Below are positions 1-20,064 of a stretch of 64,000 bases of DNA, piece after piece; position 1 is the first letter of the stretch, and each line of letters starts with the position of its first letter. Position numbers and translations under genes: made by a program. The notes beneath the pieces were generated by a model. That model did no database searches and was not told the origin of the DNA. It saw only the letters and a list, made by a program, of their open reading frames with translations. The DNA is from an uncultured Actinomycetes bacterium (GTDB taxonomy: Bacteria > Actinomycetota > Actinomycetes > S36-B12 > GCA-2699445). The stretch covers positions 2,743-66,742 of the forward strand of contig CAZECO010000002.1 of assembly GCA_964510455.1 (NCBI GenBank), written 5' to 3'.

Positions 1-19
1 CGCGGGATGGCGAGCGTCC

Positions 20-1498
20 ATGAGCCAGCACAACGACTCAGCCTCCGGTCTCGATCTCTCGCGTGCGCCGCGAGGCGAACTCGCCGCCGCGCAACTCATC
101 GCGGCCGTGGCTGAGATCGGCGATTTCGCAGAACGTCACTACCTTGAACTCAAGGGACCGCCTGATTTGAGTTCGAAGGCAAGCAAAGCCAAAGTGGCAA
201 AATTCATTCTTGGCGCCGCGAATCGGATGCCAGACCTCGCGGCCGAAGCCTTCGAAGGATACGGCGTCATGATCGTCGGCATTACAAGTAACGGCATCGA
301 AGGTGTTCCGCCTATCGAGATGCTTGCGCTAGCGCAAGTCATACAGCCGTTCCTCGGCGCGGCTGGACCTCGGTGGGACATTGTCCGCGTGCCTGTCGAA
401 CAGTCAGCCAATCAGGTCATCGTCATCCTCGTGGACCCACCACAGATGGGACAGCCACCGTTCATCTGCCGCGCAAGCGGAGAGGGACTACAAAACGGGC
501 GACTCTACTTCAGAGGCGACGGCGAAACTCGCGAACCAACGGCAGACGAACTCGACTTGCTGATGGCGCGCGGCAATTCTCGACCTCCCGCTCCGGTAGA
601 ACTCGACGTGTCCGTCGTCGGAACAGTGGTTCCCCTGATCATTGATGCGGGCCGGACGCTCGATGAGTTCGTCGGCAAGACTCGCCAGCGCCTCCTCGAT
701 GCCATTGCCGGTCCTGAACGCGATCCGAATCGATCGTCGGAATCAGGATCTGGGCTCGGTCTTCTGGACCCACCCTGCACGGCACCGGGTCTGTCGGCCG
801 GTATGGTTCGGCTGGTCATGGGGCAGCCATCAGCGGCGCGTGGACTCGCCGCTTTCGCTGAGTCGGCAATGCCGGAGAGTCGTACGGAGGACGAATACCG
901 GGTCGAGATTGACGTCTGGGAGCGTCGCTTCCGTGAAGCATGGCCAGATGCCATCGAGCAGTTCGTCGGATGCGCTCTGCATGCGAACGAGGTGTCGGTC
1001 GTCAACAAGACGCAGACCTTCCTGCGGGACGTCGAGGTGAGACTGCACCTCAACGGAGCCGTGGAAGTGGTTGTGCACGAGGGCGATGCCGACGAACCGG
1101 AGTTGCCAGACTTGGACCTGCCTCCGCCGCCGCGCGAGTGGGGCCCAACGAGTGGGGCCAACCCCTTGAATCTCGCGAATCCAATCAACTTGGCGGCCCT
1201 CATCCCCCCGTCGTTGCACGCGTCACAGCTCCACGTGCCGTCCAGCACATCCTGGAAGACCACTGGCTCAGTAGATGTCAGCATCGACGTTGGCGACCTT
1301 CGACCCGAAGCCACTTTCACATCTGACGATGGCGAGTGCACGCTTGTGATCCGGGGAGATGTGCCCACAGCAATCGGTGGAACTTGGACCGCGACAGCCC
1401 ACGGATACAACGAGGTGTTCAGGGGCGAAGTGGAGGTAGAGGTCGCCGAACCTGCCCTTCTCACTGACATGCTTCGCCGCTTCCTCGGTCTGGAGTAA
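20..1498 (+). CDS. Hypothetical protein with an N-terminal AlbA_2/Schlafen-like putative DNA-binding domain; C-terminal ~300 aa unassigned
   Basis: 492-aa ATG ORF. Residues ~35-185 follow the AlbA_2 pattern (ERHYLELKG...VAKFILGAANR...GVMIVGITSNGIEGV...LYFRGDGETREPTADEL). The rest carries no motif I recognise. Visibly lower GC than the core genes and convergent with hsdR. Confidence 0.6.
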   Translation: MSQHNDSASGLDLSRAPRGELAAAQLIAAVAEIGDFAERHYLELKGPPDLSSKASKAKVAKFILGAANRMPDLAAEAFEGYGVMIVGITSNGIEGVPPIEMLALAQVIQPFLGAAGPRWDIVRVPVEQSANQVIVILVDPPQMGQPPFICRASGEGLQNGRLYFRGDGETREPTADELDLLMARGNSRPPAPVELDVSVVGTVVPLIIDAGRTLDEFVGKTRQRLLDAIAGPERDPNRSSESGSGLGLLDPPCTAPGLSAGMVRLVMGQPSAARGLAAFAESAMPESRTEDEYRVEIDVWERRFREAWPDAIEQFVGCALHANEVSVVNKTQTFLRDVEVRLHLNGAVEVVVHEGDADEPELPDLDLPPPPREWGPTSGANPLNLANPINLAALIPPSLHASQLHVPSSTSWKTTGSVDVSIDVGDLRPEATFTSDDGECTLVIRGDVPTAIGGTWTATAHGYNEVFRGEVEVEVAEPALLTDMLRRFLGLE

Positions 1499-1587
1499 CG
1501 GCCATTTCCAGGACTAGGCCGTCGGGGAACGGAAGGTGGCGAAATACCCTCGGAACAAGTGGGGCCTCCGCTACGTCAGCACGCGCC

Positions 1588-4500
1588 TCACGCCGCCTCC
1601 GCCCCCGCGATGACCTCCGCCTGCTGCAGCACCAGCACGGTGGCCGCCTCCGCTTTGTCCGGCGGGTACCCGTGCTTGCGCAGCAGCCGCTTGATGGTGG
1701 TCCGTAGCCGGGCGCGGACCTGTTCCTTGACGGCCCAGTCGGTCTTCGCGTCGCGGCGGACAATCTCCAGCAGCTCGTGCGCGATCTTCTTCAACTGGTC
1801 GTCGCCGAGCTCCAGGACGGCGCTGTCGTTGGTGCGGATTGCGTCGTAGAACGCCAGCTCGGCCTCGCTGAGGCCCAGGTCGTCGCCGCGCTGCTGCTCG
1901 GCCTGGAGCCGCTTTGCCAGGTCCACCAGCTCGGCGATCACCGTGGCGGTGTCCAGGGTGCGGTTCTGATAGCGCAGCAGGGTCTCGTTGAGCATGTCGG
2001 AGAACAGGCGGCCGGTGACGATGTTCCGCTTGGCGATGCGCTTGATCTCGGAGTTGAGCATCCGCTTGAGGGTCTCCAGCTGCAGCGCCGGGCGGGAGGC
2101 GGTCTGGAACTTCTGCAGGAAGTCGTCGTTGATCAGGGAGATGTCGGGCTTGGCGATCCCGGCCTCCGCGTACACGTCGATGACCCCGGCCCCGGCGATC
2201 GCCTCGGACAGGATCTGCTTGATCGCGGTCTCCACGAGGGAGTCGGGGTCGCCGACGCGCTGGTCGGTGCCCTCGATCTTGCTGATCTGGGCGCGGACCG
2301 CCTCGAAGAACGCGACATCGTCGCGGATGGCCTGCGACTCGGAGCACGGCGCGCACATCGCATAGAGGGTGATCAGGCGACGGGAGTGGCTCATGAACCG
2401 GCACCGGGCGCACGGCTCGTCGGCGGTGCACTGCTTCTCGATGGGCCCGGGATGCTGCGCGAGCAGGTGCTCGACGGTGTCGCCGAGGGTGTGCAGGAAC
2501 GCCCGTGGGTCGCCGGAGGCCAGCCCCTCGCGCCACGGAACTCCGTGCAGGATCGTGGACACGACCTCGTGCTCGGACATCATCGCGGGGATGATCTGCT
2601 CCGACACGTCCTGCCCGAGCTGGCCGGCCTGCTGGTCGCGCTTGGTGTACGACGCCAGGGCGGAGCGCAGGTCGTCGGCGATGCCGAGGTAGTCCACCAC
2701 CAGCCCGGCGGGCTTGTCTTTGAACGTCCGGTTCACCCGGGCGATCGCCTGCATCAGCGGCGCGCCGGACATTGGCTTGTCCACGTACATGGTGTGCATC
2801 GAAGGGGAGTCGAACCCGGTCAGCCACATGTCGCGGACGATGACCAGCTCCAGCTCGTCGTTCGGGTTCTTGGCCCGGTTCTTCAGGTCGCGCCGGCCCT
2901 CCTTGTTCCGGATGTGCGGCTGCAGCAGCGGGTCGTCGTCGGCCGACCCGGTGATCACGACCTTCACCTTGCCGGTGGCGTCGTCGTCGGTGACCCAGTC
3001 GGGGCGCAGCCGGCCGATCTCGTTGTACAGGTGCGCGGCGATCCGCCGGGACATGGTGACGATCATCGCCTTGCCGGCCAGCACCTCGCGGCGGCCCTCC
3101 CAGTGGGTGACGATGTCGTTCGCCAGTTCGGCGATCCGTTTGTCCGATCCGACGATCGCCTCGATCCGTGCCCACCGGGTCTTCAGCCGCTCCTGCGCCT
3201 CGTCCTCGGTGCCGGACGTGGCCTCGGCGAAGTCCTCGTCCAGATCGCGCAGGGCGGCCGCGGGCAGCTCGACCTTGGCGAGCCGCGCCTCGTACAGCAC
3301 CGGGACGGTGGCCTCGTCCTGCACGGCCTGGGTGAGGTCGTAGATGTCGATGTACTCGCCGAACACCTGCCGCGTCGACTTGTCCTTGGCGTCGATCGGG
3401 GTGCCGGTGAACCCGATGTAGGCGGCGTTCGGTAGCCCGTCGCGCAGGTGGCGGGCGAACCCGTCGATGAAGTCGTAGTTGGACCGGTGCGCCTCATCGA
3501 CCATCACGACGATGTTGGTGCGGTCCGACAGCAGCGGGAACTGCGTGCCAGCGTCGCGCTCCGGCTTGGACAGCCCGAACTTCTGGATCGTGGAGAAGAT
3601 GATGCCGCCGGACTGCCGGCCCGCCAGCAGGTCCTTCAGGTGCTCGCGGCTGGTCGCCTGCACGGGGGCCTCCGGCAGCGGGGCGCCGGGCCGGGCGGAG
3701 GCGAAGGTGTCGTCGAACAACTGGTCATCCAGGTCGTTGCGGTCGGTGAGCACCACGACGGTCGGGTTCTCCATCGCCGGCTCGCGCATGGTCTTGCCGC
3801 AGTAGCAGAGCATCTCCAGGCTCTTGCCGGAGCCCTGGGTGTGCCACACGACCCCGGCCCGGCCGTCCGATGCGACAGCGGCGATGGTTGACTGGACCGC
3901 TTTCGTGACGGCCCAGTACTGGTGGTACTTGGCGACCTTCTTGACCACGCCGGACTTCTCGTCGGCGAACACCACGAAGTTGCGGACCAGGTCCAGCAGC
4001 ACATCCGGGGCGAGCATGCCGTCAGCGAGCACCTCGAACTGCGGCTGGGCGTCGGGAGCCGTCTCGACCCCGTCGACGGTGCGCCACGGCGCGTAATGCT
4101 CCCACGGCGCGGTGAACGTCGCCGCGCGGGCCTGCATCCCGTCGGAGATGACCGTCAACTGGTTCCAGGTGAACAGGTCCGGAATGTGGGCGCGGTAGGT
4201 CTGGATCTGGTTGAACGCCCTGCGCAGCGACGCCTTGCTCTTGGCCGGGTTCTTCACCTCCACCAGCGCCAGCGGCAGCCCGTTCACGAACAGGACGATG
4301 TCCGGTCGGCGCTCCGACTTCCCGATCACCGTGAACTGGTTGACCGCCAGCAGGTCGTTGCCGCCCGGGTCGTCCCAGTCGATCAGCCGCACCCGGGCGT
4401 GTCGGATCTCGCCGGAGTTGTTGCGGTACTCGACGGGCACGCCCTGGGTCAGGAGCTGGTAGCCGCGCCAGTTCTCCGTCAGGGCCACCTGCGACTCCGG

Positions 4501-4728
4501 GCGCAGCACCGCCTTGACCGCGTCCTCGACGGCTTCGGCGGGGACGGTGGGGTTGAGGCGGTGCAGGGCGCGCCGAAGGCGGTCGGGCAGGACGACCTCG
4601 CGGTACTCGGTACGTTCCGCTGTGGGCTCGCCTGGTGCGATGGTCGGGCCGTACGCGGTCGACCAGTCCAGGTCCGACAACTGGGCCATGAACAGCGTCT
4701 CGACCTGCGCCTCGGTCAGGAACGTCAC
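1588..4728 (-). CDS. hsdR: Type I restriction enzyme R subunit (HsdR)
   Basis: 1046 aa from the GTG at 4728, which overlaps the hsdS stop as GTGA. Helicase motif I WHTQGSGKS and DEAH box VVMVDEAHRS are present, with a typical HsdR N-terminus (LPDRLRRALHRLNP). The upstream part of the 1247-aa ORF overlaps hsdS and is rejected. Confidence 0.95.
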   Translation of the reverse strand: MTFLTEAQVETLFMAQLSDLDWSTAYGPTIAPGEPTAERTEYREVVLPDRLRRALHRLNPTVPAEAVEDAVKAVLRPESQVALTENWRGYQLLTQGVPVEYRNNSGEIRHARVRLIDWDDPGGNDLLAVNQFTVIGKSERRPDIVLFVNGLPLALVEVKNPAKSKASLRRAFNQIQTYRAHIPDLFTWNQLTVISDGMQARAATFTAPWEHYAPWRTVDGVETAPDAQPQFEVLADGMLAPDVLLDLVRNFVVFADEKSGVVKKVAKYHQYWAVTKAVQSTIAAVASDGRAGVVWHTQGSGKSLEMLCYCGKTMREPAMENPTVVVLTDRNDLDDQLFDDTFASARPGAPLPEAPVQATSREHLKDLLAGRQSGGIIFSTIQKFGLSKPERDAGTQFPLLSDRTNIVVMVDEAHRSNYDFIDGFARHLRDGLPNAAYIGFTGTPIDAKDKSTRQVFGEYIDIYDLTQAVQDEATVPVLYEARLAKVELPAAALRDLDEDFAEATSGTEDEAQERLKTRWARIEAIVGSDKRIAELANDIVTHWEGRREVLAGKAMIVTMSRRIAAHLYNEIGRLRPDWVTDDDATGKVKVVITGSADDDPLLQPHIRNKEGRRDLKNRAKNPNDELELVIVRDMWLTGFDSPSMHTMYVDKPMSGAPLMQAIARVNRTFKDKPAGLVVDYLGIADDLRSALASYTKRDQQAGQLGQDVSEQIIPAMMSEHEVVSTILHGVPWREGLASGDPRAFLHTLGDTVEHLLAQHPGPIEKQCTADEPCARCRFMSHSRRLITLYAMCAPCSESQAIRDDVAFFEAVRAQISKIEGTDQRVGDPDSLVETAIKQILSEAIAGAGVIDVYAEAGIAKPDISLINDDFLQKFQTASRPALQLETLKRMLNSEIKRIAKRNIVTGRLFSDMLNETLLRYQNRTLDTATVIAELVDLAKRLQAEQQRGDDLGLSEAELAFYDAIRTNDSAVLELGDDQLKKIAHELLEIVRRDAKTDWAVKEQVRARLRTTIKRLLRKHGYPPDKAEAATVLVLQQAEVIAGAEAA

Positions 4729-5970
4729 GCCACCACCTCCCGGACCGTTACCGCGCCGGACATCAGCAGGGGGAGGAGCTCGTCGCGGGTGCGGCGGAGT
4801 AGAGCTGCCTCTGAGGCAAGCGATCCCGCCCACTGCCACAGAACCCACATTGTGGACTCGAAGTCCTCGGATTCCCCGAATACGTCGGGAAGTGGGGCGT
4901 CCAGGAACGCCTGACCCCGAACAGCCGGATATGCGCTTCCTTCCGCTCGGCTGACGAGGAAGTCGACGAACTCCTGCCTGTCCGTAGCGGCGAAGAGGGT
5001 CGCCGGGCCTGCGGAAGTGGGATGAAGAACGGCTAGGCCCGTGCTCACAACGAGGTTCTCGGGTGGTTCCAGCAACATCGCGTGAGCCCGCCGGTTCGGG
5101 CGCACTGTCGACCAGAGGGTGTCGCCATGGGATGCGAGCCGCCGAGCCCGCGACGGAGCAGAAGCCCACGGTGAAGGCTCGGGGAGAGCAATAGTCCCGT
5201 CGCCTATTGAGGCGATGTCCAAGTACGTCAACTCGCCCTCGGGCTGTGGCTTGATCTGGGCTGGATTCACCCGAGCGACTTCTCTCAGTTCGATGGTCTC
5301 GATTGCGCGCGTCGCCAGAGCCGCGAACCACGAGGCAGACAGTTGGCGCACTCGTGCGATCAACTGTTGATCGGTGTCGATGAGGTCGTCCAGTGCGCCC
5401 AGCACACCAGCAATGGTGCGTTGCGTCGGGACGTCCGGGATGCAGACGTGAAGTGCCTTTGCCTCTGGGTAGTACATCGTTTGGTGTGTGGTTCCATGGG
5501 AGAAGCGCCTGACGCTCTCCTGCTCGGCTTCAAGCAACCACATCAGATAGCGCGGGAGAATCCGGGGACTACAAACCCAATTGACGAAGTCTTGGCTGGT
5601 GGCCATCGGAACGCCCATCATCACGACGTATCCGACCGAAGCTGTGCGGGATAGGCAAACCGTTCCGGCCGGAAGGACGCGCGCCGACGAGTTCTCAATC
5701 CCCGCCGCGGAGACCGACTCACGTGTGCTTCGAATGATTCGTCCATGATTGGCTGTCGCGTCTCGGATACCCACCCAAGGGATTCCGTCGCCCCAGTACT
5801 CAGGGTGCCTGCGGCTAGGGGTATGGCCACTCTCGAGCCTGGCAATGCTCTGCAGTTCGATCCACTCAAAGCCAGCAGGGGTGCTGCGGTCCGGCTTCCC
5901 AACGCTCAGCGCCCAGCGGCCGGGAATCACACCTCCGCCTGCAGGTCGGCCGCCCGTGACTGTCGGCTGT

Positions 5971-5978
<8 letters not shown>
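4725..5978 (-). CDS. hsdS: Type I restriction-modification specificity subunit (HsdS), two target-recognition domains
   Basis: About 417 aa from the ATG at 5978, which overlaps the hsdM stop as ATGACTAA. Has two TRD-like halves with conserved spacers (TIAGVLGALDDLID...; LLRRTRDELLPLLMSG). The stop overlaps the hsdR start. Confidence 0.9.
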
Positions 5979-7602
<1,624 letters not shown>

Positions 7603-7804
7603 GGGTCTCCCTCGTTCGCCCCGTGGTTCTCATGGCCGATCTTGCCCGATGGGGTGGCGGGATGGTGTGCAGGCGTGACGCCGCGGAGCTGCACGATGTG
7701 CCGTGTTTCCTGTCAGAGTCTGCGACATCAGGGTGGGCCGTCGCGCAACACGCGCCATAGCGCCACAGCTCGTGCGGGCATCGAGACCTTGCCCAGCGGG
7801 TATA

Positions 7805-7834
7805 TCTGAGATAAAGTGCGAGTCTAGTCTCAGA
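7805..7834. promoter_or_regulatory. Inverted repeat TCTGAGA-N16-TCTCAGA in the AT-richer hsdM/7848 divergent intergenic region; candidate operator
   Basis: Read directly at 7805-7811 and 7828-7834. An AGGGAGGG RBS follows, then the GTG at 7848. Confidence 0.35.
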
Positions 7835-7847
7835 CAGGGAGGGTGAT

Positions 7848-8651
7848 GTGAGCGAAGAGGTGCCCGGCGCCCGGCCGCGGAAGAAGGGCCGCAGTCCTTC
7901 TTACCCTGCGATCGACTTGCGTGCTGCGATCAAGCGGGCCGAGGCCCTCTATGCCCACGAGAAGATGCACCCCGCCCCGATTGGGGCAATTGTGAGCCAC
8001 TGGGGCTACGCGACCCACAAGAGCGGTATCGCTTCTGTCCAGTACGCGTCCTTGAAGAAGTTCGGGCTGCTAACTGAGGAGGGCAGCGGCGATAACCGCC
8101 TAGGCATGTTGACACCGCTGGCCAACGCCATTCTGCACAACCCGGACGAGAGCGAGCGGGCCGATGCGATCAGGACCGCCGCTCTCACGCCCGAGATCCA
8201 CCGCGAGCTCTGGGACCAGTACGGATTGGACCTGCCATCTGATGCCAACCTCCGGTACCGCCTATCTGAGCGCGGGTTCACCGATTCAGGTGCAGAAGAA
8301 TTCGTCAAGGAGTACAAGGCGACCATCAGTTTCGCAATGACCGGCATCGAGGACGACCCCCGCGAAGGCAACCAGCTTGACACGACCGACCGCATCGAGC
8401 CCTCTACGGTCGGACCGACTGAGGGCGCACCCAAGGAACCGGTGTTGAGTGCGCCCGAGCACGCTCGTGGGTCGGCCAACCCGAGAACGCGCCGACATGC
8501 CATTCCACTCATCGGTGGAAAACAGGTGATCTTGGAGGGGGATTTTCCGCTAACCGAGGCTGCCTGGGCCGGGTTCATGGCCGTCCTCGAAGCCTTCAAG
8601 CCCGGCTTGGTGGAAGGGGAGCACCCGTCGTCGCAGGCGGGCGGGGAGTAG
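7848..8651 (+). CDS. Hypothetical protein (helical / winged-helix-like N-terminal half, disordered linker, small C-terminal domain)
   Basis: 267-aa ORF with a GTG start behind a strong RBS. The stop lies 4 nt before the NYN gene start. I recognise no catalytic motif. Confidence 0.6.
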
Positions 8652-8655
8652 GAAT

Positions 8656-9399
8656 ATGCGAGTCGGAATCTACATCGATGGCTTCAATCTCTACTACGGC
8701 GCGCGACTCATGTGCGGCAAGGGGACTGCGGGTTGGCGTTGGCTGGACCTTCGGGCGCTCGGCACCCAGTTGATCGCAACAAACTCAGGGTGGACGACCG
8801 TGACCGGGGATATCCGAGTCGTCTATTGCACCGCCCGGATCAAGGCCGATGCCTCCAACCCGGCTGCCGCTGGGCCACGCGAGCAGGCGGTGTACCTCCG
8901 GGCATTGACCGCCTCAGGTTCGGTGGACGAGATCGCTTTCGGAAATTACGTCTCGCGGGTTTCCACTGCCCCCCTCGCTGTCGCAAACAAGCGAAGGAAG
9001 CCGGTGCTCGTGCGGCCGGCGTGGCCTGTAATGGTGCAGGACGGCAAGTCCGGCGAGATTCCTGACGCGATCTTCATGGTTTCGGTGGCGCGCCGCGAAG
9101 AGAAAGGCTCCGACGTCAACGTGGCAGCCCATCTCCTCCTCGATGTTCTTGAAGGCCGGGTTGATGCAGCCGTCGTGGTTAGCAATGACAGCGACCTTGC
9201 CTTCCCCATCAAGGAGGCACGCAGGCGCGTCCCCGTCGGAACCGTGAACCCGACAAAGGGTTACACCGCGAGCGGACTGTCGGGAGGGCCCGCTGATGGG
9301 GTAGGCCGTCACTGGTGGTACCAGCTCAATCCGACTGATCTATATGGCGCCCAACTTCCTCATCGCGTCGGAATACTCCAGAAGCCCGCCCCCTGGTGA
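8656..9399 (+). CDS. NYN (LabA-like, PIN-fold) domain nuclease
   Basis: 247 aa. The N-terminus [16 protein letters not shown] and the later [15 protein letters not shown]...[13 protein letters not shown] give the acidic residues typical of NYN domains. Confidence 0.8.
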
Positions 9400-9768
9400 G
9401 CACCCACGGAGAGGGGGCGAATGTGTTCGGTGCCATATCTCCGCAAGCCTTCGTCCCTCCTTCTTGCTGGCGCCAACCAACTCGTGTCAGACTTAAGTCA
9501 GACCGCCCGTCTCCTTCGTGGGACGGGCTTACCTCTGTCCAGTTCTGGGCTGCGCGCACGAAGGTAGAGCGTTCCTGCTCCAGATACTTGGACCGCTGAT
9601 CGCCGTCAATGCCCTTGCTTTCGGGCATCAGTTCCACCGCGGAATTGAGCTCGCTGATGATCATGTCGCTCCACACCGGTCGGTACACCCGACCGCGGCG
9701 ATCTGGAGCAGCACGTCCCTGGTGAGGCTGGGGACCAGCACACTGGCGTCGAGCAGTGCTGAGAACAC
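9326..9768 (-). pseudogene. PIN-domain toxin remnant (frameshifted and 3'-truncated), paralogous to 54490-55089
   Basis: The GTG at 9768 gives VFSALLDASVLVPSLTRDVLLQIAAVG. A frame change at ~9688 then continues LYRPVWSDMIISELNSAVE, consistent with a 1-nt deletion. Resemblance to the intact paralog stops after ~80 aa, so the D/H-containing C-terminal half is missing. Confidence 0.6.
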
Positions 9769-9769
9769 G

Positions 9770-10178
9770 TCAGTGGGCAGACGGACGCTTGCGGGCGCGT
9801 CGCACGGCAGCGGAGGCTCTCTCCTCGGCCACGTCGTACAGTCCTATGCGTTCGGTCTCGGCAACGAGGTCGGCGAGCGCCTGCTCAGCCCTTTGACGTT
9901 GGCGGTCCCGGTAGGCCAAGAGGTCCAGGAGCCTGACTCTGCGGTGGCGGCTGGGTTGCTCGAACGGGATCTCGCCGTCCTTGAGAAGCCTCACCAGAGT
10001 GGTGCGGCTAATGCCGAGCAGATCGGCAGCTTCCTGCGTCGATAGCGCCTGGTGGACTGGTGCGACGGTGACGGCAACCCCTGCTGCATGGCCGTCGCGA
10101 CTTGCAGGAGTATCTCGAAGAACTCGGCCGGCAGTTGTACCGTCTGGTCGTCGGCAGAGACAAGACGAGTCCCCGCCC
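9770..10178 (-). pseudogene. Excisionase-type HTH antitoxin, 5'-truncated by the adjacent IS remnant
   Basis: The C-terminal 102 aa (ALSTQEAADLLGISRTTLVRLLKDGEIPF...) parallel the antitoxin at 54107-54493. Similarity runs up to ..GGDSS at the inverted repeat (10179). There is no ATG, GTG or TTG in frame until the ORF enters transposase-derived sequence. Confidence 0.55.
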
Positions 10179-10390
10179 CTGAGCTTGCGATTAAACCTCT
10201 GGGGGCGGGTCAGGCGGCCTTCTTGATGGCTGGGTGGCGTGTGCGTGGGCCGGTGCGCGTTCCGGTGGGGCGTCCTGGTCCTGCTCGGCTGGGTTTCGGC
10301 GGTTTGGCTGGTGTCCCGAGTGCGGCAGCGGTGCGCCGAAACCCTCGCCGGACGCGGGCGGGGGTGAGTCGTCCTGGTTTGGCGCGGCGC

Positions 10391-10519
10391 TCCCAGGGGG
10401 GCGATCCACTGGTAGGACCAGCCGGCCACGATCGGCTGTCCGGCGGAGTGCTTCGACGCGGAGTAGTAGAACCCGCGCTGCGGGGAGGTCTCGGCGTCGC
10501 AGCGCGCCCACATCCGCGC
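10391..10519 (-). pseudogene. DDE-transposase fragment (family not determined)
   Basis: The translation ARMWARCDAETSPQRGFYYSASKHSAGQPIVAGWSYQWIAPLG resembles, from memory, a conserved block of actinobacterial transposases. There is no intact ORF context. Confidence 0.4.
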
Positions 10520-10520
10520 C

Positions 10521-10784
10521 GGCAGCATCGCCCTGCGCCACAACCGCTGCGGAAAGCCCGCCTGCCGCTGCCACGGCGACCCGCCCCAGCTGCACGGCCC
10601 CTACTGGCAATGGACCGCCAAGGTCGCCGACAAGACCGTCAACCGCCGGCTCACCCAGGCACAGGCCGAGCTCTACACCGAGTGGATCGACAACGACCGG
10701 CGCCTGCACGCCCTCATCGAGCAGATGCGAGACGTCGCAGCCAAAGCCACCGAACTACGCCTCACCCAGGCAGCCGAGGTCTAA
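10521..10784 (+). pseudogene. DUF6788-like protein fragment (N-terminally truncated)
   Basis: The frame after the TAG TAG at 10464-10469 reads GSIALRHNRCGKPACRCHGDPPQLHGPYWQWTAKVADKTVNRRLTQAQAELYTEWIDNDRRLHALIEQM. This is the Cys-rich CGKPxCxC...HGPYxxW signature. It has no start codon, and its stop TAA is the first base of the right inverted repeat. Confidence 0.5.
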
Positions 10785-11197
10785 TCGCAAGCTGAGTGGG
10801 CGCGCAGAAACGCCTCGAACTTCGCGACTGTGTCGCCCGACCCGGGAAGGTATGCCGGCGCCAGGTCGCTGAAGCACAATCAGGCAACGGCGTGACAACG
10901 CAGCGCTGGGTCCGGCGAATGCTCATGGCATCCAAGTCGACCCTTCGACCCTCTGCCTGCCGGAATGCATGGGATCAGTGCTGCCCTGGGGCCGGCCTGG
11001 ATGATCGGCGCCGTCGTCTGCAGGAATGCATGGGCACACGTTGATCGCGATCCGTTTGCGGGGCGGATTGTGCGGCATGCCCCGAGCTGGGCACCACCGG
11101 CGCCGCTCACCGCCCACGCTCACGTGTCGCAGCAGGTGCCTCTGCTACGACGCGAGTCGTGGCCCGCGTGCCTCCGAACCGCGGCTAGGTTTGGCCC

Positions 11198-12106
11198 ATG
11201 CCACAGGTCCCGCGCGCCATCAGCAGCGCTGCCGCGAAGATCCCCGGTCCGGCCGGGGGACCCTTCCGGCCCGGCAAGTCCCTGCAGGATGTCGTGGCCG
11301 TTGTGACCGGCGGTGCTGCCGGCATCGGCCGGGCCACCGCGTCCGGACTGGTCCGGCGCGGCGCGGTCGTCGTGATCGGGGACATCGACGGCGGCGCGGC
11401 AGCCAAGACCGCCGAAGAGATCGGGGCGAAGGCCGGCATGCGACTCGATGTGGCGGACCGGCCCGGGTTCAGCGACTTCCTCAATGAGGTCGAACAGCGG
11501 TTCGGGGCGATCGGCGCGCTGATCAACAACGCCGGCATCATGCCGCTCGGGCCGCTGATGGACGAGGACGACGCGACCACCGCCCGGATCATCCAGATCA
11601 ACCTACACGGCATGATCCACGGCACCAGGGAGGCGATGCGCAGGATGGTCCCGCGCGGCTCGGGGCACATCGTCAATGTCGCATCAACCTTGGGCAAGGC
11701 GGGGCTGCCCGGCGGCGCGACCTACAGCGCGACGAAGTTCGGCATCGTAGGGTTCAGCGAATCGGTGAAGGGAGAACTCGCAGGCACCGGCGTGCACCTG
11801 ACAATCGTTCTGCCCGGAGTCGTGGAGACCGCGCTGGGGGAGGGTGTCAGGGCGCCGATCGGGATCCGCCTGGTCACCCCGGACGATGTGGCCGACGGCA
11901 TCGTGGATGCGTTGGCGAAGCCCCGGTACGAGGTGTACGTCCCCTTCGAGGCGGGTCCGGTCGCGATGCTCGGCGCGGCGCTGCCGCAGGGGATGCGCGA
12001 TGTCCTGGCCAAGGCGCTGGGACTGGACAAGACCCTCACGGGAGCGGATGGGAACGCTCGGAAGGCGTACGAGGCGATGGTGCGCGAAGCGGATCCGTCG
12101 ATATGA
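11198..12106 (+). CDS. SDR family oxidoreductase
   Basis: 302 aa. Carries the Rossmann motif VTGGAAGIG, NNAG and the catalytic YSATK. Confidence 0.9.
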   Translation: MPQVPRAISSAAAKIPGPAGGPFRPGKSLQDVVAVVTGGAAGIGRATASGLVRRGAVVVIGDIDGGAAAKTAEEIGAKAGMRLDVADRPGFSDFLNEVEQRFGAIGALINNAGIMPLGPLMDEDDATTARIIQINLHGMIHGTREAMRRMVPRGSGHIVNVASTLGKAGLPGGATYSATKFGIVGFSESVKGELAGTGVHLTIVLPGVVETALGEGVRAPIGIRLVTPDDVADGIVDALAKPRYEVYVPFEAGPVAMLGAALPQGMRDVLAKALGLDKTLTGADGNARKAYEAMVREADPSI

Positions 12107-12170
12107 ACAGGGCCTGGTGCACCCGGCTGGGATCGAGTGTCTCGATGGGGCGGATGCGCCCCTGCCGGCA

Positions 12171-12563
12171 ATGAACGAGTCGCCGGAGTCCCGGCTCACG
12201 GATGCGCGGGCCGTGCGCACGATGATGCGATCCGATCTCGTGGCCGCGATGAAGGCGCGTCAGCCCGATGCGGTGGCAGCGCTGCGCACCGCCATCGCCG
12301 CCATCGACAACGCGGAGGCGGTCGCGGCGCCCGGTGGGACGGGGGCAGCCGCAAGCGGACACATCGCCGGTGCCCAGGTCGGCCTCGGATCGACCGAAGC
12401 GGAACGCCGCGACGTGTCCATCGGTGAGGTCCGCGCGATCCTGCAGGGTCAGATCGCGGACTGCAGGGCTGAGGCGGACCGGTACCAGGCGGCAGGGCAC
12501 CACGAGGCGGCCGGGCAGCTGCGACGTCAGGCCGAAGCGCTGCGGAAGTACATGGGCACGTAG
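12171..12563 (+). CDS. GatB/YqeY domain protein
   Basis: 130 aa from the ATG at 12171. Shows the YqeY-like pattern MRSDLVAAMKARQPDAVAALRTAIAAIDNAE. The start choice is uncertain. Confidence 0.65.
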   Translation: MNESPESRLTDARAVRTMMRSDLVAAMKARQPDAVAALRTAIAAIDNAEAVAAPGGTGAAASGHIAGAQVGLGSTEAERRDVSIGEVRAILQGQIADCRAEADRYQAAGHHEAAGQLRRQAEALRKYMGT

Positions 12564-12584
12564 GCGCGCCGGTGAAGGGCCGGA

Positions 12585-12860
12585 TCAGTCCTCGGCGTCC
12601 CACTCCGCGAACCACGTCGCGTAGTGGCGGGGCCATGACCCCTCGGGCTGCTCGGCGGTGTACCGCGCGTCGGCCTTGACCAGCCATTCCTCGACGCGGT
12701 CCACGGATGGCTGCGAGTCGAGCAGTTCGAGCAGCTGGCCGTACATCCATTCGGCGTACCAGCGCGGCCAGCTCTCGTTCGGTCCGCCGTAGACGGCGTG
12801 ATGGGCGTGGGCCGCCGCCACCATCAGGTGGCGCAGGTCGTCGTACTTGGCGTCGTCCAT
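12585..12860 (-). CDS. Small conserved hypothetical protein
   Basis: 91-aa ATG ORF with non-repetitive, W/Y-rich, protein-like composition. No family recognised. Confidence 0.55.
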   Translation of the reverse strand: MDDAKYDDLRHLMVAAAHAHHAVYGGPNESWPRWYAEWMYGQLLELLDSQPSVDRVEEWLVKADARYTAEQPEGSWPRHYATWFAEWDAED

Positions 12861-12926
12861 GGGCGCGAGCCTACGCCCGGCGATACCAGGTTGATGTCGT
12901 CGGGCAGGGCCCTCAGCGGCTGCGGA

Positions 12927-13355
12927 TCATTGCGCGGATGACGCCGGGTGGGCATCCAGCCAGGCGCGCGCCCGGCGAGCGGATGCCCGCGACAGCCAGG
13001 CGTCCTGGATGATCTCGGCCAATTCCCGACGGCTCAGCTCGCCCACCCGACTGGCGCGCAGCAGCACCGAGGGATGGCCGTCGAAGTGCGCGGTGGTGAA
13101 GAACGGCGATGCCTCATCCTGCACAAGCGCAGACTTGTCGGACTCGTCCGCCACCCAGAGGACGATGACGTCGCTGTACCGTTCGCCGGTCTGCGGATCG
13201 AAGGCGTCGGGCCGGGGGGTGCGGAAGAAGATGAACGACTTCCCGCCCACCTGGTAGACGGGATTCCCGCCGGCGGAGTGTTCGACGGTGACGTGGGGCA
13301 TCGCAAGGGCGAAGTCGTGCACGTCTTGGATCCGCGCTCGCGGGACGGCCGCCAC
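12927..13355 (-). CDS. MmcQ/YjbR family DNA-binding protein
   Basis: 142 aa from the GTG at 13355. Matches the family pattern (IQDVHDFALAMPHVTVE...YQVGGKSFIFF...HFDGHPSVLLR). The upstream part of the 332-aa ORF is Arg/Pro-rich shadow sequence. Confidence 0.75.
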   Translation of the reverse strand: MAAVPRARIQDVHDFALAMPHVTVEHSAGGNPVYQVGGKSFIFFRTPRPDAFDPQTGERYSDVIVLWVADESDKSALVQDEASPFFTTAHFDGHPSVLLRASRVGELSRRELAEIIQDAWLSRASARRARAWLDAHPASSAQ

Positions 13356-13393
13356 GGTTCCAGCGTATGCGCCGTGGGGCCGCCCAACCCGTG

Positions 13394-13729
13394 TCACAGG
13401 CCGAATTCGGACCGCCGTGCTTCGGGGACGAGGTCGACGTACTGCCGGTTGGTCCGGATGTACTTGCGGATGAACGGACACTGCGGAACGACCGACAGGC
13501 CACGGCCGCGGACCTCGTCGAGGGCATCGCCGGCGAGGCGGCGCGCCAGGCCCCTGCCAGCGAAATCGGGGAACACCTCGGTATGGACGAACGTGAGCTG
13601 GTGCGCGCCGAACTCGTACTCGGTGAAGCCGGCCAGCGCTCCTCCCACGTGCACCTCGAAGCGGAACTGCTCGGGGTTGTCTGCGACGGTGACCTGGTAG
13701 TCGCTCGCCGCGTGGTCCTCGCTCGACAT
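13394..13729 (-). CDS. GNAT-fold N-acetyltransferase (YjdJ-type small GNAT)
   Basis: 111 aa from the ATG at 13729. Reads FRFEVHVGGALAGFTEYEF...LTFVHTEVFPDFAGRGLARRLAGDALDEVRGRGLSVVPQCPF. Confidence 0.75.
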   Translation of the reverse strand: MSSEDHAASDYQVTVADNPEQFRFEVHVGGALAGFTEYEFGAHQLTFVHTEVFPDFAGRGLARRLAGDALDEVRGRGLSVVPQCPFIRKYIRTNRQYVDLVPEARRSEFGL

Positions 13730-14066
13730 TCCGACTCCCGATTCTGTCTGCCCCGCCCGGCGCCGCACCGGCGCGGTGCCAGCATCCTAGCCCTGCACCC
13801 GCTGGGGGAAGCTTGCGCCGCGGACGGCTGCCTCCGGATGCGGACAGGGCGACCGATGGCCAGCCGAGGTGCTCGCCCCACGCGAGGTCCGGTCGGTCGG
13901 GTCCTCCCGGCGAGCCGATGCCCATGCATCTCGTCGACCGCTCCTGTCGGGTGCCGCAGACACCCTGCGGGCGCCGTGATCCGGTGACGGAATCGGCCAG
14001 ATCGGCAGCTGGCGACTGGGGCGATCCTTGCCCGCGGCGTGGGTCCCCAGGACTCGCCCCTTCACA

Positions 14067-14085
14067 TTCGGTTAGCCTTACCTAA
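14067..14085. promoter_or_regulatory. IdeR/DtxR-type iron box upstream of bfd-bfr
   Basis: TTCGGTTAGCCTTACCTAA matches the 19-bp consensus TTAGGTTAGGCTAACCTAA at 16/19 positions by hand. It lies 35 nt upstream of the bfd ATG. Confidence 0.65.
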
Positions 14086-14119
14086 TACTGGAGTGGCTGC
14101 CTATTGGGGGGTGTTCCAC

Positions 14120-14359
14120 ATGCTGATCTGCCACTGCTTCGCGGTGTTCGAGCGCGCGGTTGATGCGGCGATCGCGGACGGCGCCTGCAGCGTTCCCGAC
14201 CTGGCCGACGCGACCGATGCCGGGGCGGGCTGCGGCGGCTGCCATCTGGCGCTGTGCCGCCGGTTGGGTGCGGCTCACCCGAACGGCGAATGCGGCGGCG
14301 ACATGTGTGCCCGTTCCTCCTCCGACGCCTCGTCTGGCAAGATGCCGGTAGCCGTCTGA
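14120..14359 (+). CDS. bfd: Bacterioferritin-associated ferredoxin, (2Fe-2S)-binding
   Basis: 79 aa beginning MLICHCFAV, with CxC...CGGC Cys motifs. Lies immediately upstream of bfr. Confidence 0.8.
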   Translation: MLICHCFAVFERAVDAAIADGACSVPDLADATDAGAGCGGCHLALCRRLGAAHPNGECGGDMCARSSSDASSGKMPVAV

Positions 14360-14371
14360 GAGAGGAACGCT

Positions 14372-14836
14372 ATGAGGGGCAACGCCGCGGTTGTGGAGAT
14401 CCTGAACGAGGCACTCACGTCGGAACTGACGGCGGTCAACCAGTACTTCATCGCGTCGAAGATGGCCGCGGACGCCGGCTACACCAAGCTCGCCAAGGAC
14501 TACTACGACGAGTCGATCGGCGAGATGAAGCACGCGGAGGTGCTGATCGAGCGGATCCTCTACCTGCAGGGCCTGCCCAACATGCAGCGGCTCTTCCCGG
14601 TGGGCGTGGGCGAGACGATCATCGAGCAGTTCCGCCTCAACTACGAACTGGAACTGGGTGCGGTGGACCGGTACCAGCGGGCGGTTGCCATCTGCGTCGA
14701 GGCGGGCGACCCGGGCACCCGCGCGCTGATGGAACAGATCCTCGCCGAGGAGGAGCACCACGTCGACGAGGCGGAGGCAGAGCTGGTGAACCTGGAGCAG
14801 CTGGGCGAGCAGCTGTGGCTGGCCAAATGGGTGTAG
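14372..14836 (+). CDS. bfr: Bacterioferritin
   Basis: 154 aa. Reads VVEILNEALTSELTAVNQYFIASKM...MKHAEVLIERILYLQG...EEEHHVDEAEAEL, giving the ferroxidase-centre residues and the heme-ligand Met region. Confidence 0.95.
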   Translation: MRGNAAVVEILNEALTSELTAVNQYFIASKMAADAGYTKLAKDYYDESIGEMKHAEVLIERILYLQGLPNMQRLFPVGVGETIIEQFRLNYELELGAVDRYQRAVAICVEAGDPGTRALMEQILAEEEHHVDEAEAELVNLEQLGEQLWLAKWV

Positions 14837-14858
14837 CCCTCGCGGGTTGCGGGGGTCG

Positions 14859-14883
14859 GGCGACCGGCACGTGCGCGGTCGCC
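14859..14883 (+). terminator. Possible hairpin terminator after bfr
   Basis: GGCGACCG-N9-CGGTCGCC forms a perfect 8-bp stem 23 nt after the bfr stop, followed by TTGT. There is no long U tract. Confidence 0.35.
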
Positions 14884-14936
14884 TTGTCGGGCGTGGCCAT
14901 GTCCATCAGGGACACGCCCAGGCCGTAGGTGAGCAA

Positions 14937-15234
14937 TCAGCCTGCGGGCTCCCGTTCCGACAGGCAGCCGGTCGCGAGCCGTTCCGGCGGCACGAGCCGC
15001 GCCAGCCTCGCGGAGACCGAGGCGATGTCCACCGACTGCGGTGCGTGCACCGTCGCCGTCGCGTGGAAGGTGATGGTCGCGGGCGGGATCGGGGCGACCA
15101 GGGACAGCAGCAGGCCGCCGCGCCGGATGGGCACCGTGACGGCCCCCTTCGTCCCCGGAGCACAGCTGCCGCGCCTTCCAGCTCGTGGCCGCCGTGACGA
15201 TGAGGACGCGGCGGTTCGCGGCCGCACACCCCAC
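14937..15234 (-). pseudogene. Small high-GC3 ORF interrupted by a 1-nt frameshift in a C5/G5 run
   Basis: The GTG at 15234 reads MGCAAANRRVLIVTAATSWKARQLCSGDEG. The frame changes at the run 15142-15146 and continues AVTVPIRRGGLLLSLVAPIPPATITFHATATVHAPQSVDIASVSARLARLVPPERLATGCLSEREPAG*. The total of 298 nt equals 99 codons plus 1. Third positions are almost all G/C in both parts. Confidence 0.35.
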
Positions 15235-15294
15235 GCCGCTGAACCCGCGGATCCCACCGACCCCGCACACCCCGCCAGATTTCCGAACGGACCC

Positions 15295-15348
15295 GCGTTG
15301 ATCGCGGCGTTTCGCCGCACGGCTGCGGCGGTTCGCGGCGATCAACGC
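15295..15348. repeat. 54-bp palindromic interspersed repeat, copy A
   Basis: GCGTTGATCGCGGCG...CGCGGCGATCAACGC. Its reverse complement matches copy B (37000-37053) at 49/54 positions by hand alignment. Confidence 0.8.
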
Positions 15349-15432
15349 ACCAGGAATCCACGGCCCCAGCTGCTCGCCCATCTCCCTACCGTTGTGACGG
15401 CGCCGGCGTGCCCGCCCGATAGGCTCACCGCT

Positions 15433-16575
15433 GTGACCACCCCCACCCTCGCCGAGGTCGTCGCCGCCCTGCAGCGGCGCTTCCCGCCCTCGCTGGCCGA
15501 GTCGTGGGACCGCGTCGGTCTGGTGTGCGGGGACCCGGATACGGCGGTCGAGCGCATCCTGTTCGCCGTCGATCCCACGCTTGCCGTCGCGCAGGAGGCG
15601 GTCGAGGGCGGCGCGCACCTGCTCGTCACCCACCACCCGCTGCTGCTGCGCGGCGTCCACACCGTGGCCACGACCACCGGCAAGGGGCGGGTGGTGCACC
15701 GCCTCATCAGCGGCGGCTGCGGCCTGTTCACGATGCACACCAACGCCGACGCGGCACAGGGCGGCACCAACGCCGCACTGGCGGGGCTGCTGGGGCTGCG
15801 GGATGTGCAGCCGCTGGTGGCGGCCGATGGGCCGGCGATCGACAAGTTGGTCGTCTTCGTGCCGCCCGAACATCGTGCCTCCGTGATGCAGTCGCTGTTC
15901 GCCGCGGGGGCGGGGCGCATCGGGGACTACGACAGCTGCGCCTACTGGACCGACGGCACCGGCCAGTTCCGTCCGACGGCGGGCGCCCAGCCCTTCATCG
16001 GGCGGCCCGGGGAGATCTCGGAGGTGGCCGAGTCCCGGATCGAGGTCGTCCTGCCGCGCGCTCGCAGGCACGCCGTCATCGCGTCCCTGCGGGCCGCGCA
16101 CCCCTACGAGGAGCCTGCTTTCGACGTGTGGGAGACGGTCGCGCCGTCGCCGCTCGGGATCGGCCGGATCGGCACCCTGGCGCCCCCGACGACCCTGCGC
16201 GCGTTCGCCGAAACGGTGGCCGGCATCCTGCCGGAGACGTCCGCCGGGCTGCGCGTCGCGGGCGATCCGGAGCGGATCGTGCGCACTGTCGCGATCTGTT
16301 CCGGGGCGGGGGATTCGCTGCTCGCCGCGGTGCGCGCCACCGGTGCGGACGTCTACCTGACGGCGGATCTGCGCCACCACCCCGCGGATGAGCACCTCGC
16401 CGAGAACGGCTGCGCCCTGATCGATGCGTCCCACTGGGCCAGCGAATGGCCGTGGCTGCAGGGCGCCGCCGCAGACTTAGCCGCCGATCTGGGTGCAGCT
16501 GGGTTTACCGTGGAGGCGCATGTGAGTAGCACCTCGACCGATCCCTGGTCGTTTCGCGTAGGGGGCCGAAGCTGA
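15433..16575 (+). CDS. Nif3-like dinuclear metal center protein
   Basis: 380 aa from the GTG at 15433. Reads WDRVGLVCGD...LLVTHHPLLLRG...MHTNADAA...DLRHH, the NIF3 pattern with an inserted PII-like domain. Confidence 0.9.
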   Translation: MTTPTLAEVVAALQRRFPPSLAESWDRVGLVCGDPDTAVERILFAVDPTLAVAQEAVEGGAHLLVTHHPLLLRGVHTVATTTGKGRVVHRLISGGCGLFTMHTNADAAQGGTNAALAGLLGLRDVQPLVAADGPAIDKLVVFVPPEHRASVMQSLFAAGAGRIGDYDSCAYWTDGTGQFRPTAGAQPFIGRPGEISEVAESRIEVVLPRARRHAVIASLRAAHPYEEPAFDVWETVAPSPLGIGRIGTLAPPTTLRAFAETVAGILPETSAGLRVAGDPERIVRTVAICSGAGDSLLAAVRATGADVYLTADLRHHPADEHLAENGCALIDASHWASEWPWLQGAAADLAADLGAAGFTVEAHVSSTSTDPWSFRVGGRS

Positions 16576-16592
16576 AGACCGAACCGCAAGCC

Positions 16593-17315
16593 TTGCTGAC
16601 CCTGTTGCAGATCCAGGAAGCCGACCTGCAGCTGCAGCGGCTGAGATCCCGCCGCGACGCCCTGCCGGAGGCCGTCCGAGCGAAAGAACTGGCGGCAGCG
16701 GCCGCGGCCGCCCATGATCGGGCGGTGATGCGCCGGACCGAGTCGTCGGACCTGCAGCGCGAGGTCCGCAAGATCGAGGACGAGGTGGACAAGGTCCGCA
16801 GCCGGGCGAAGCGCGACGCCGAGCTGCTGGCCACTGGCGAGGTTGTTTCAGCCCGCCAATTGACCGACCTGCAGCACGAGATCGCGAGCCTGCAGCGCCG
16901 CCAGAGCGACCTGGAGGACACCGAGCTGGAACTGCTCGAACAGGCGGAGGAGGCGGCCGGAGCGTTGCAGCGGGCCGAGCAGGAGCGCGACGAACTGGCT
17001 GCGCGGGCCGCTGCGGCCAAGGGGGAGGCGGACAGTGCGATGTCCGAGCTGGCCGCCGCCTATCGGCAGACCACCGCGCAGCGCAAGGATCTCGCGGCGG
17101 GTGTTCCGAGCGACCTGTTGGCGCTGTACGAGAAGATCCGGGCCGCCCACGGCGGGACCGGTGTTGCGGAGTTCAGCGGCGACCAGTGCGGGGGATGCCG
17201 GCTGCAGATGATCCCGTCGGAACTGGCGGCGGTGAAATCGGCCCCCGTCGACGACGTCGTCCGGTGCGAGGAGTGCGGCCGGATCCTGGTGCGGTCGTCG
17301 CTGCTGCGCCCGTGA
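16593..17315 (+). CDS. Zinc-ribbon coiled-coil protein (DUF164 family)
   Basis: 240 aa. A coiled coil is followed by CGGC...CEECGRIL. Occupies the conserved actinobacterial position between Nif3 and the phosphatase. The TTG start is uncertain. Confidence 0.8.
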   Translation: MLTLLQIQEADLQLQRLRSRRDALPEAVRAKELAAAAAAAHDRAVMRRTESSDLQREVRKIEDEVDKVRSRAKRDAELLATGEVVSARQLTDLQHEIASLQRRQSDLEDTELELLEQAEEAAGALQRAEQERDELAARAAAAKGEADSAMSELAAAYRQTTAQRKDLAAGVPSDLLALYEKIRAAHGGTGVAEFSGDQCGGCRLQMIPSELAAVKSAPVDDVVRCEECGRILVRSSLLRP

Positions 17316-17998: not shown

Positions 17999-18061
17999 CC
18001 GAGCATCACGCGATCATGGCTCCTACCATGCCACCATGGACGGTTACCGCGGGAAGAGCAG

Positions 18062-19960: not shown

Positions 19961-20064
19961 GGCGAGGAGGCTTCGCGCCGGCTCGGTAGGGCCCTCGATC
20001 GCAGCCCATCGCCGGAACCGCCGTGGCAGGCTGTGGGCATGAGGTCGATGATGGAGCAGATGAG

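Follow-up and report, generated by a model that had tools for sequence, protein, structure and literature searches.

We analysed a 64,000-nt stretch of a contig from an uncultured Actinomycetes bacterium (CAZECO010000002.1; the whole stretch is called the window below), in which two genes, here named gene A and gene B, lie between hsdM of a type I restriction-modification (R-M) operon and a truncated gene for a PIN toxin. Judged from its sequence, the region that holds them is a small mobile bicistronic cassette with the following features:

7803-9540, + strand: transferable cassette (operator-like repeat, gene A, gene B and 3' hairpin), from DNA homology with locus L167
7803-7836, + strand: operator-like inverted repeat over the likely promoter, TATCTGAGA-N16-TCTCAGACA
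7848-8651, + strand: gene A, GTG start, 267 aa, from the open reading frame (ORF) list and the raw sequence
8656-9399, + strand: gene B, ATG start, 247 aa, from the ORF list and the raw sequence
9505-9528, + strand: terminator-like hairpin closing the cassette, GCCCGTC-N10-GACGGGC, read from the sequence

The ORF list and the sequence agree in placing the genes 4 nt apart (the TAG stop codon of A at 8649-8651, then GAAT, then the ATG of B at 8656), each preceded by a purine-rich ribosome-binding site of its own (GGGAGGG at 7837-7843 for A; GGGGAG at 8643-8648 for B). The 7-bp arms of the inverted repeat (TCTGAGA at 7805-7811 and TCTCAGA at 7828-7834) enclose a spacer of 16 nt, and a -10-like TAGTCT lies within the repeat region at 7825-7830. 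The spacing, the ribosome-binding site, the repeat and an AT-richer region had been put forward in an initial annotation of the window and were borne out; the GC content is 0.62-0.65 in the cassette, lower than in hsdRMS (about 0.67-0.69) and farther to the right (0.70-0.74).

The nearest relative of the cassette is that of L167, whose A and B products are 76% and 85% identical to those of the window and which is the only relative that keeps gene A followed by gene B. DNA homology between the two (75% over 1754 nt) covers window positions 7803-9540 only, from the left repeat arm to the hairpin, and the flanks are unrelated. Because the homology is confined in this way, the two genes, as had been proposed, form one transferable 1.74-kb unit, common to the window and to L167 in another context and restricted to a narrow lineage. 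In this sole close relative the arms of the repeat are kept, as a perfect 9-bp pair (shuffle P=0.02), and its spacer has diverged; the hairpin is likewise kept, and the 3' region of the window cassette (9395-9545) has a folding z of -2.3. The L167 cassette is followed by a gene for an AlpA/excisionase-like HTH_17 protein and a tyrosine-integrase gene, and is preceded by what reads, from the sequence, as a tRNA-type gene of which the contig end has left only the 3' part; no hsd genes are present in L167.

The two encoded proteins

The product of gene B meets the Pfam NYN model (PF01936; 26.6 bits, gathering cut-off 24.2) over residues 147-191 only, and the same domain is carried by its homologs, of which more than 6854 were found. 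The motifs DGFNLYY, EKGSDVN and SNDSD, from which the initial annotation had recognised this domain, are invariant in an alignment of 26 homologs, as are residues D8, N11, E148, E149, D153, N177, D178 and D180, and an acidic, metal-binding, PIN-like pocket is provided by D8, E148, E149, D153, D178 and D180. Since the motifs are invariant, the enzyme looks intact, and B looks like a catalytically intact NYN (PIN-like) predicted RNase of the HEC-09 type. Its match to the PADLOC model HEC-09 (E=1.2e-26, 91.7 bits) falls into two stretches because B has an insert; this insert (about residues 100-140) is family-specific and actinobacterial, and is accompanied by a conserved C-terminal tail. B also matches phrog_7929 (E=1e-23), and a sequence-profile search of the PDB with B gave nothing.

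HEC-09, the single-gene Hma-embedded candidate 09, is a NYN/MARF1-like putative RNase (PADLOC PDLC04163; Payne et al. bioRxiv 10.1101/2024.01.29.577857). Like B, it is a stand-alone NYN/PIN-like predicted RNase with conserved aspartates, and it lies in or beside multi-gene defence systems; unlike B, it is partnerless, whereas B has the actinobacterial insert and tail, shares an operon with gene A, and flanks, rather than sits inside, a type I R-M operon instead of Hma. Eukaryotic NYN proteins of the MARF1/LabA type have the same PIN-like fold and acidic pocket (Pfam PF01936; structural comparison in the HEC-09 paper) but are distant in sequence and differ in domain context and biology. The initial annotation had seen no such system among named defence systems, which holds for the pair as such but not for its NYN half, given the match to the catalogued HEC-09; a literature search found no description of a winged helix-turn-helix (wHTH) plus NYN system or of the tRNA-like element presented below.

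The product of gene A has no match in Pfam, NCBIfam, PADLOC or PHROGs. AlphaFold2 models it at a predicted local distance difference test score of 84.5 for the full length and 96.2 for the N-terminal domain alone, as a helical N-terminal domain (about residues 20-165) that contains an H-H-H-beta-beta winged helix, a disordered acidic linker (residues 166-211) and a conserved C-terminal beta-beta-alpha domain of about 45 aa (residues 212-255). The winged helix, which the initial annotation had anticipated, thus sits in what is confidently modelled as a new helical scaffold. Foldseek comparisons of the full-length and N-domain models with PDB and BFVD gave weak winged-helix matches only (best E=0.009-0.05, the N-domain neighbours being of the MarR/ArsR/PadR type) and nothing at E<=0.001, and the sequence-profile search of the PDB returned only the wHTH of Csa3, at E=1.2. 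In the family, the wing residues G79 and R84 are invariant, K71-F72-G73 is conserved, and so is the C-terminal motif FP(L/I)xExxWxxFxxVLxAxKPxLV beside NYN, DUF3800 or Abi_2 partners alike. On the strength of the model, A is predicted to bind DNA.

Homologs of A numbered 363 in a word-indexed search and 6135 by profile, the latter as representatives of 50%-identity clusters (1858 at E<=1e-30). By sequence comparison A is a member of a large, previously undescribed family of more than 6,000 protein clusters that is invisible to all four of these annotation resources. The possibility that A is a phage or plasmid gene was rejected, given 0 phage records, one distant megaplasmid match and one of 2.9 million viral contigs.

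Genes and RNAs that accompany the gene A family

ORFs around A were clustered, annotated and then counted by profile within 3 kb in 77 non-redundant A groups. Nuclease genes of three folds recurred: NYN in 13 groups, DUF3800 in 6 and Abi_2/HEPN in 3, the last also matching PADLOC AbiD and PD-T4-5. A divergent IS1-family transposase gene was found in 21 groups and an unknown 113-aa gene directly downstream of A in 13. The same profiles applied to 959 kb of distal flanks gave one NYN gene and none of the others, so that the 13 NYN genes observed compare with 0.28 expected in 271 kb (Poisson P about 1e-17). The NYN partners belong to at least four lineages (85%, 57% and 31% identical to B, some barely alignable) and are placed relative to A in four arrangements, tandem, divergent and transposon-borne among them; in many loci the nuclease gene is divergent from A and not in the same operon. 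A DUF3800 gene starts 8 nt after A in one tight arrangement, and a divergent DUF3800-A cassette occurs in L171 and in Micromonospora, where it splits a Thioredox_DsbH gene; A and Abi_2 genes overlap in tandem by 44 or 8 nt, next to a tRNA-Leu gene or next to an integrase gene. The partner of A differs even among homologs 59% identical to A.

Viewed from gene B, whose family was followed in 80 genome loci anchored on B and in 80 metagenome loci anchored on A, the association is sparse. A B-family NYN gene is present in only three of the 80 A-anchored loci, and there it is divergent, not downstream; in L120 and L123 the B family is paired in divergent order with an A of 41% identity. Elsewhere B is usually a lone gene by housekeeping genes. 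The neighbours of B in 54 close loci include no recurrent partner, and the idea of another conserved partner for B was rejected on that ground.

Among about 30 long loci, PADLOC scans of A neighbours disclosed the following defence contexts. The DUF3800-A cassette of L086 lies within a DISARM (defence island system associated with restriction-modification) operon (DrmD, DrmMI, DrmA), between two direct copies, 440 nt long and 83% identical, of the 3' part of drmMI (6336-6773 and 8920-9356). Likewise, at the divergent DUF3800-A cassette of L168, which interrupts a Thioredox_DsbH gene, the 5' part of this gene is repeated directly on either side, over 163 nt at 72% identity (8736-8898 and 10832-10994). 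These diverged repeats of the interrupted host gene suggest that an arriving cassette brings along part of the donor's version of its target gene. DrmA, DrmB and an integrase are encoded near A in L178; a BREX (bacteriophage exclusion) locus in L151 has A in the position of BrxR, 100 nt ahead of brxA-brxB-brxC; HmaC lies beside an A-bearing IS1 element in L116, a ThsA-like protein is encoded near A in L146, and in the window the neighbour is a type I R-M system. Strong links tie the A family to nuclease genes of three folds and to defence loci, and since its cassettes are found again and again within DISARM, BREX, Hma and R-M loci, it is a concrete 'guilt-by-embedding' candidate.

In the IS1-family transposons, conserved terminal inverted repeats (GGTAGTGTCCTAATTTG...) enclose the transposase gene, a small RNA-like gene, A and the 113-aa gene, to which an NYN gene is added in some cases. 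Such IS1-A elements are located at:

L158: 1761-4855
L150: 151-3246
L146: 3080-6228
L148: 6412-9809
L128: 260-3212
L131: 87-3047
L103: 1623-4504
L098: 1558-4994
L145: 123-1730

The L103 element has an 8-bp target duplication, the L145 element looks like a transposase-less derivative, and the hosts span a GC range of 36-66%. The protein of about 113 aa, whose gene overlaps or abuts the end of A in L117, L118, L125, L128, L132, L142-L146, L148, L150, L153 and L158, carries the motif VWEGTVQVFDL..HP...CYAWSH...RRF.AVLHQGP.DSP..AVRAAI and has no match in Pfam, NCBIfam or PADLOC. Two riboswitches in these loci are probably incidental, a thiamine pyrophosphate riboswitch just outside the left end of the L098 element (1400-1511, - strand) and a flavin mononucleotide riboswitch about 650 nt downstream of A in L130 (9471-9620, + strand). 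The window cassette gave no IS1 transposase match and has no terminal repeats of the type GGTAGTG(T/G)CC... nearby.

The RNA-like gene is about 70 nt long and resembles tRNA-Ala or the tRNA-like domain of transfer-messenger RNA (tmRNA); 33 of the 66 well-flanked A groups have it, at a distance of 118-244 nt upstream of A and in the opposite orientation, and many of these loci are IS1-family transposons. Between it and A, in at least 17 loci, stands a GC-rich terminator-like hairpin with a covarying stem and the conserved loop GGUUNCNGCC. Examples of both, the tRNA-like gene being found in the L081-L160 set, are:

L112, 42-113, - strand: tRNA-like gene
L136, 456-529, - strand: tRNA-like gene
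L103, 3098-3169, - strand: tRNA-like gene
L170, 9767-9835, - strand: tRNA-like gene
L103, about 3173-3202: GC-rich hairpin upstream of the A homolog
L113, about 5919-5950: GC-rich hairpin upstream of the A homolog
L121, about 560-591: GC-rich hairpin upstream of the A homolog

In the 30 distinct sequences from which its features were drawn, the tRNA-like gene has an acceptor stem of 7 bp with covariation at pairs 4-7, invariant G1-C72, G2-C71, G3.U70 and A73, an often encoded CCA, a canonical T-arm and an anticodon-like loop that varies between lineages. The Rfam tmRNA model aligns with both ends of the L112 element at E=2.6e-11, below the gathering score; Rfam has no other match for the gene, and ARAGORN does not call these elements. 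Read in the tRNA-like sense, the stems comprise 358 Watson-Crick, 48 G.U and 13 mismatched pairs, as against 358, 2 and 59 on the other strand. A -10-like TAnnnT adjoins the element on the strand of A in 28 of 32 cases; TTGAC beside the gene was rejected as a -35 box, its spacing of 7-8 nt being wrong, and only the TAnnnT is supported. The hairpin, which has no Rfam match, is flanked by an A-run and a U-run and has the look of a bidirectional terminator. With the hairpin between the element and A, and the TAnnnT on the strand of A, either strand of the element could be the expressed one.

An nhmmer profile of the element detected none in the window, none in the 80 B-anchored loci and none outside A loci in 3.9 Mb searched. 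It is also absent whenever a nuclease gene lies divergently upstream with no transposase gene between the nuclease and A. A partial precedent is offered by the structured RNA motifs associated with DUF3800 (DUF3800-I to -XI, drum and skipping-rope), which show a recurrent unexplained link to a nuclease-type gene family, whatever their orientation and in many cases together with terminators (Weinberg et al. 2017, PMC5737381). A loci, too, combine DUF3800 genes with a non-coding RNA-like element, but here the RNA is tRNA/tmRNA-like and tied to gene A, not to DUF3800, and none of the Rfam DUF3800 motifs was found in A loci. The linked gene could raise the question why a tRNA mimic with alanine identity should travel on transposons and mini-cassettes.

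Possible roles of gene A

We tentatively favour, at somewhat short of an even chance, the reading that A is a regulator or sensor accompanying the stand-alone nuclease effector B. Most likely, the winged helix of A would bind the conserved repeat that overlies the promoter of gene A itself and in this way would control expression of the A-B operon, with B, whose fold and residues are those of a nuclease, as the putative RNase effector. The job of the A family appears to be to accompany stand-alone nucleases (NYN, Abi_2/HEPN and DUF3800/RNase H-like), its small cassettes lodging in defence loci, next to integrase and tRNA genes, and within transposons of the IS1 family. The context points to a likely role in abortive-infection or toxin-type defence, or as an addiction module. 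Because the same C-terminal domain of A is found whatever nuclease fold adjoins it, the role of A is more probably that of a regulator, or of a sensor for a common signal, than that of an antitoxin which neutralises one particular fold; that the arrangements are in part tandem and in part divergent agrees with a relationship of regulator to target, as does the A homolog in the BrxR position before BREX.

The closest functional analogy is with the WYL regulators BrxR/CapW and with RptR, which co-localise with diverse defence systems (PMC12255303 and references therein), as A family members do with BREX (L151), DISARM (L086 and L178), Hma (L116), a ThsA-like protein (L146) and, in the window, R-M. 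Unlike BrxR and CapW, A lacks a WYL (or WCX) domain, and it matches them neither in sequence nor in fold, its C-terminal part being the 45-aa beta-beta-alpha unit. RptR is a 79-aa basic leucine zipper-like repressor of defence islands (PMC12255303); A is unrelated to it, and regulation is for A a predicted role. If A is a regulator or sensor, its family would join the WYL/BrxR-CapW and RptR types as a third large family of regulators in defence islands, and would give a handle on how stand-alone RNases (HEC-09-like NYN, AbiD-like HEPN and DUF3800) are silenced and switched on. The window itself, with one cassette of one lineage, is of modest practical value.

Several results weigh against this reading. 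An A profile was found within 8 kb of B in none of the 80 B-anchored genome loci, and P0128 and P0127, both 75-76% identical to B, stand without A, with a pullulanase gene as the neighbour of one and thiC as that of the other. About a quarter of the well-flanked A loci have no recognisable partner. Taken alone, the window repeat is within chance (21 of 100 shuffles equal it), and a consensus scan of 7550-9800 called no sigma-70 promoter and no terminator, the hairpin at 9505-9528 included. Finally, a HEC-09 representative gave no protection in E. coli against the phages tested (bioRxiv 10.1101/2024.01.29.577857). A strictly co-occurring A-B pair, tested from both sides, was rejected, and with it the co-conserved sensor-plus-effector system that the initial annotation had envisaged. 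Among the signs which that annotation had set against its own proposal, a lack of co-conservation applies to the exact pair, but a lack of enrichment near defence genes does not apply to the A family, which is enriched beside nuclease and defence genes. The exact pairing is rare; gene A comes from a new family associated with defence, and its NYN partner corresponds to an unproven candidate that catalogues already list.

A broader proposal, unlikely as a whole, would place A in a widespread mobile module, undescribed so far, with a core made up of a winged-helix protein joined either to an RNase of the NYN, HEPN or RNase H-like kind or to the tRNA-Ala/tmRNA-like RNA. A would then sense or control a conflict centred on tRNA, for example one that involves tRNA mimics as decoys or baits and nucleases directed at tRNA, and the A-NYN operon of the window would be the nuclease-bearing version, lodged in a defence island.

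The alternative that survives best, although it too is improbable, is that A and B are independent island genes juxtaposed once in this lineage, co-transcribed and functionally unlinked. It accords with the confinement of the tandem order to the window and L167, with two families that are mostly apart, and with the junkyard nature of a locus that holds a transposase fragment as well as the truncated PIN gene. Yet NYN genes of several lineages recur beside A far above background, the B family meets A again in the other order in L120 and L123, and the pair has moved as a unit with a common promoter repeat and terminator.

Rather improbable is a role of A primarily in RNA or mobile-element biology, in which it would regulate or bind the tRNA-like RNA gene, or would be an accessory factor of IS1, with the NYN gene as cargo. 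The fixed distance of the tRNA-like gene in half of the well-flanked groups, the mutual exclusion between that gene and a divergent upstream nuclease gene, and the 21 of 77 groups with a divergent IS1-family transposase, terminal repeats of the GGTAGTG... type enclosing A, would all be accounted for. The window, however, has no such RNA, transposase or terminal repeats, and A is also carried by transposase-less cassettes within DISARM and before BREX.

That the pair is a classical type II toxin-antitoxin system, with B as the RNase toxin and A as the antitoxin, neutralising through its C-terminal domain and autoregulating through its winged helix, we regard as distinctly improbable, for all the likeness in layout. 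The genes are adjacent and co-directional with the DNA-binding one first and a 4-nt gap between them, and the linker with its small C-terminal domain and the promoter repeat recall VapBC and AbiE (the wHTH antitoxin AbiEi with AbiEii), in which, too, a DNA-binding gene lies upstream, translationally coupled to a toxin-type enzyme, behind a promoter inverted repeat and in an island. In contrast to those systems, A has no detectable VapB or AbiEi homology (no AbiEi_4/AbiEi match in Pfam or PADLOC), and B, far from regularly accompanying a cognate antitoxin, has neither A nor a conserved upstream partner in 80 of 80 genomes, nor in P0128 and P0127. Nor is A dedicated to one toxin fold: one and the same C-terminal domain stands beside three unrelated nuclease folds (NYN, Abi_2/HEPN and DUF3800), beside the tRNA-like gene or beside none of these, and many of the nuclease genes are divergent from A and not co-operonic.

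Control of the adjacent type I R-M operon by A, in the manner of a C-protein or RptR, is scarcely credible, even though A is divergent from hsdM across 245 nt, small repressors at the head of R-M or defence islands, such as RptR and BrxR, provide precedents, and the place of BrxR is taken in L151 by an A homolog, because the DNA shared with L167 begins 45 nt before A and excludes the 200 nt from hsdM to position 7803, L167 has no hsd genes and most A loci have no R-M system.

Flanking genes in the window

The genes on either side of the cassette are as follows:

5971-7602, - strand: hsdM of the type I R-M operon (Pfam N6_Mtase, 2e-104, and HsdM_N)
4725-5984: hsdS (Pfam Methylase_S), with hsdR, also Pfam-confirmed, below it
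9541-9768, - strand: frameshifted, 3'-truncated PIN toxin remnant, outside the cassette
9770 to about 10060, - strand: HTH_17/excisionase-type gene upstream of the PIN remnant, an antitoxin-like partner (Pfam HTH_17, E=2.6e-13; NCBIfam 'excise' domain)

The placement of the cassette between hsdM and a truncated PIN gene, as first described, was upheld, the PIN assignment being backed only by NCBIfam NF046100 (RSP_2648-family PIN; E=5e-9, profile positions 1-46 of 177, the first 47 or so residues), with no match in Pfam or in a PDB sequence search. The remnant is moreover frameshifted after LLQIAA (about 26 codons), and its homology fades near 9600. Its end coincides with the end of the cassette homology. 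The cassette probably inserted between the promoter side of hsdM and the HTH_17-PIN pair, and the PIN gene is left truncated.

An Rfam scan of positions 1-12000 gave nothing except a sub-threshold L19 leader, and no tRNA genes were found anywhere in the window. The block formed by the R-M operon, the cassette and the toxin-antitoxin remnant (1-10500) has a GC content of 0.60-0.69, against 0.70-0.74 for 10500-20000, a step consistent with a horizontally acquired island. In the long ORF at 9770-10543, the N-terminal part (about 10330-10510, - strand) matches the putative transposase NF041680 at positions 91-145 of 439, a further decayed mobile-element remnant beside the truncated PIN gene. By the 3' end of hsdR, a 492-aa ORF (20-1498, + strand) with no match in Pfam, PADLOC or NCBIfam may be a further island or defence gene.

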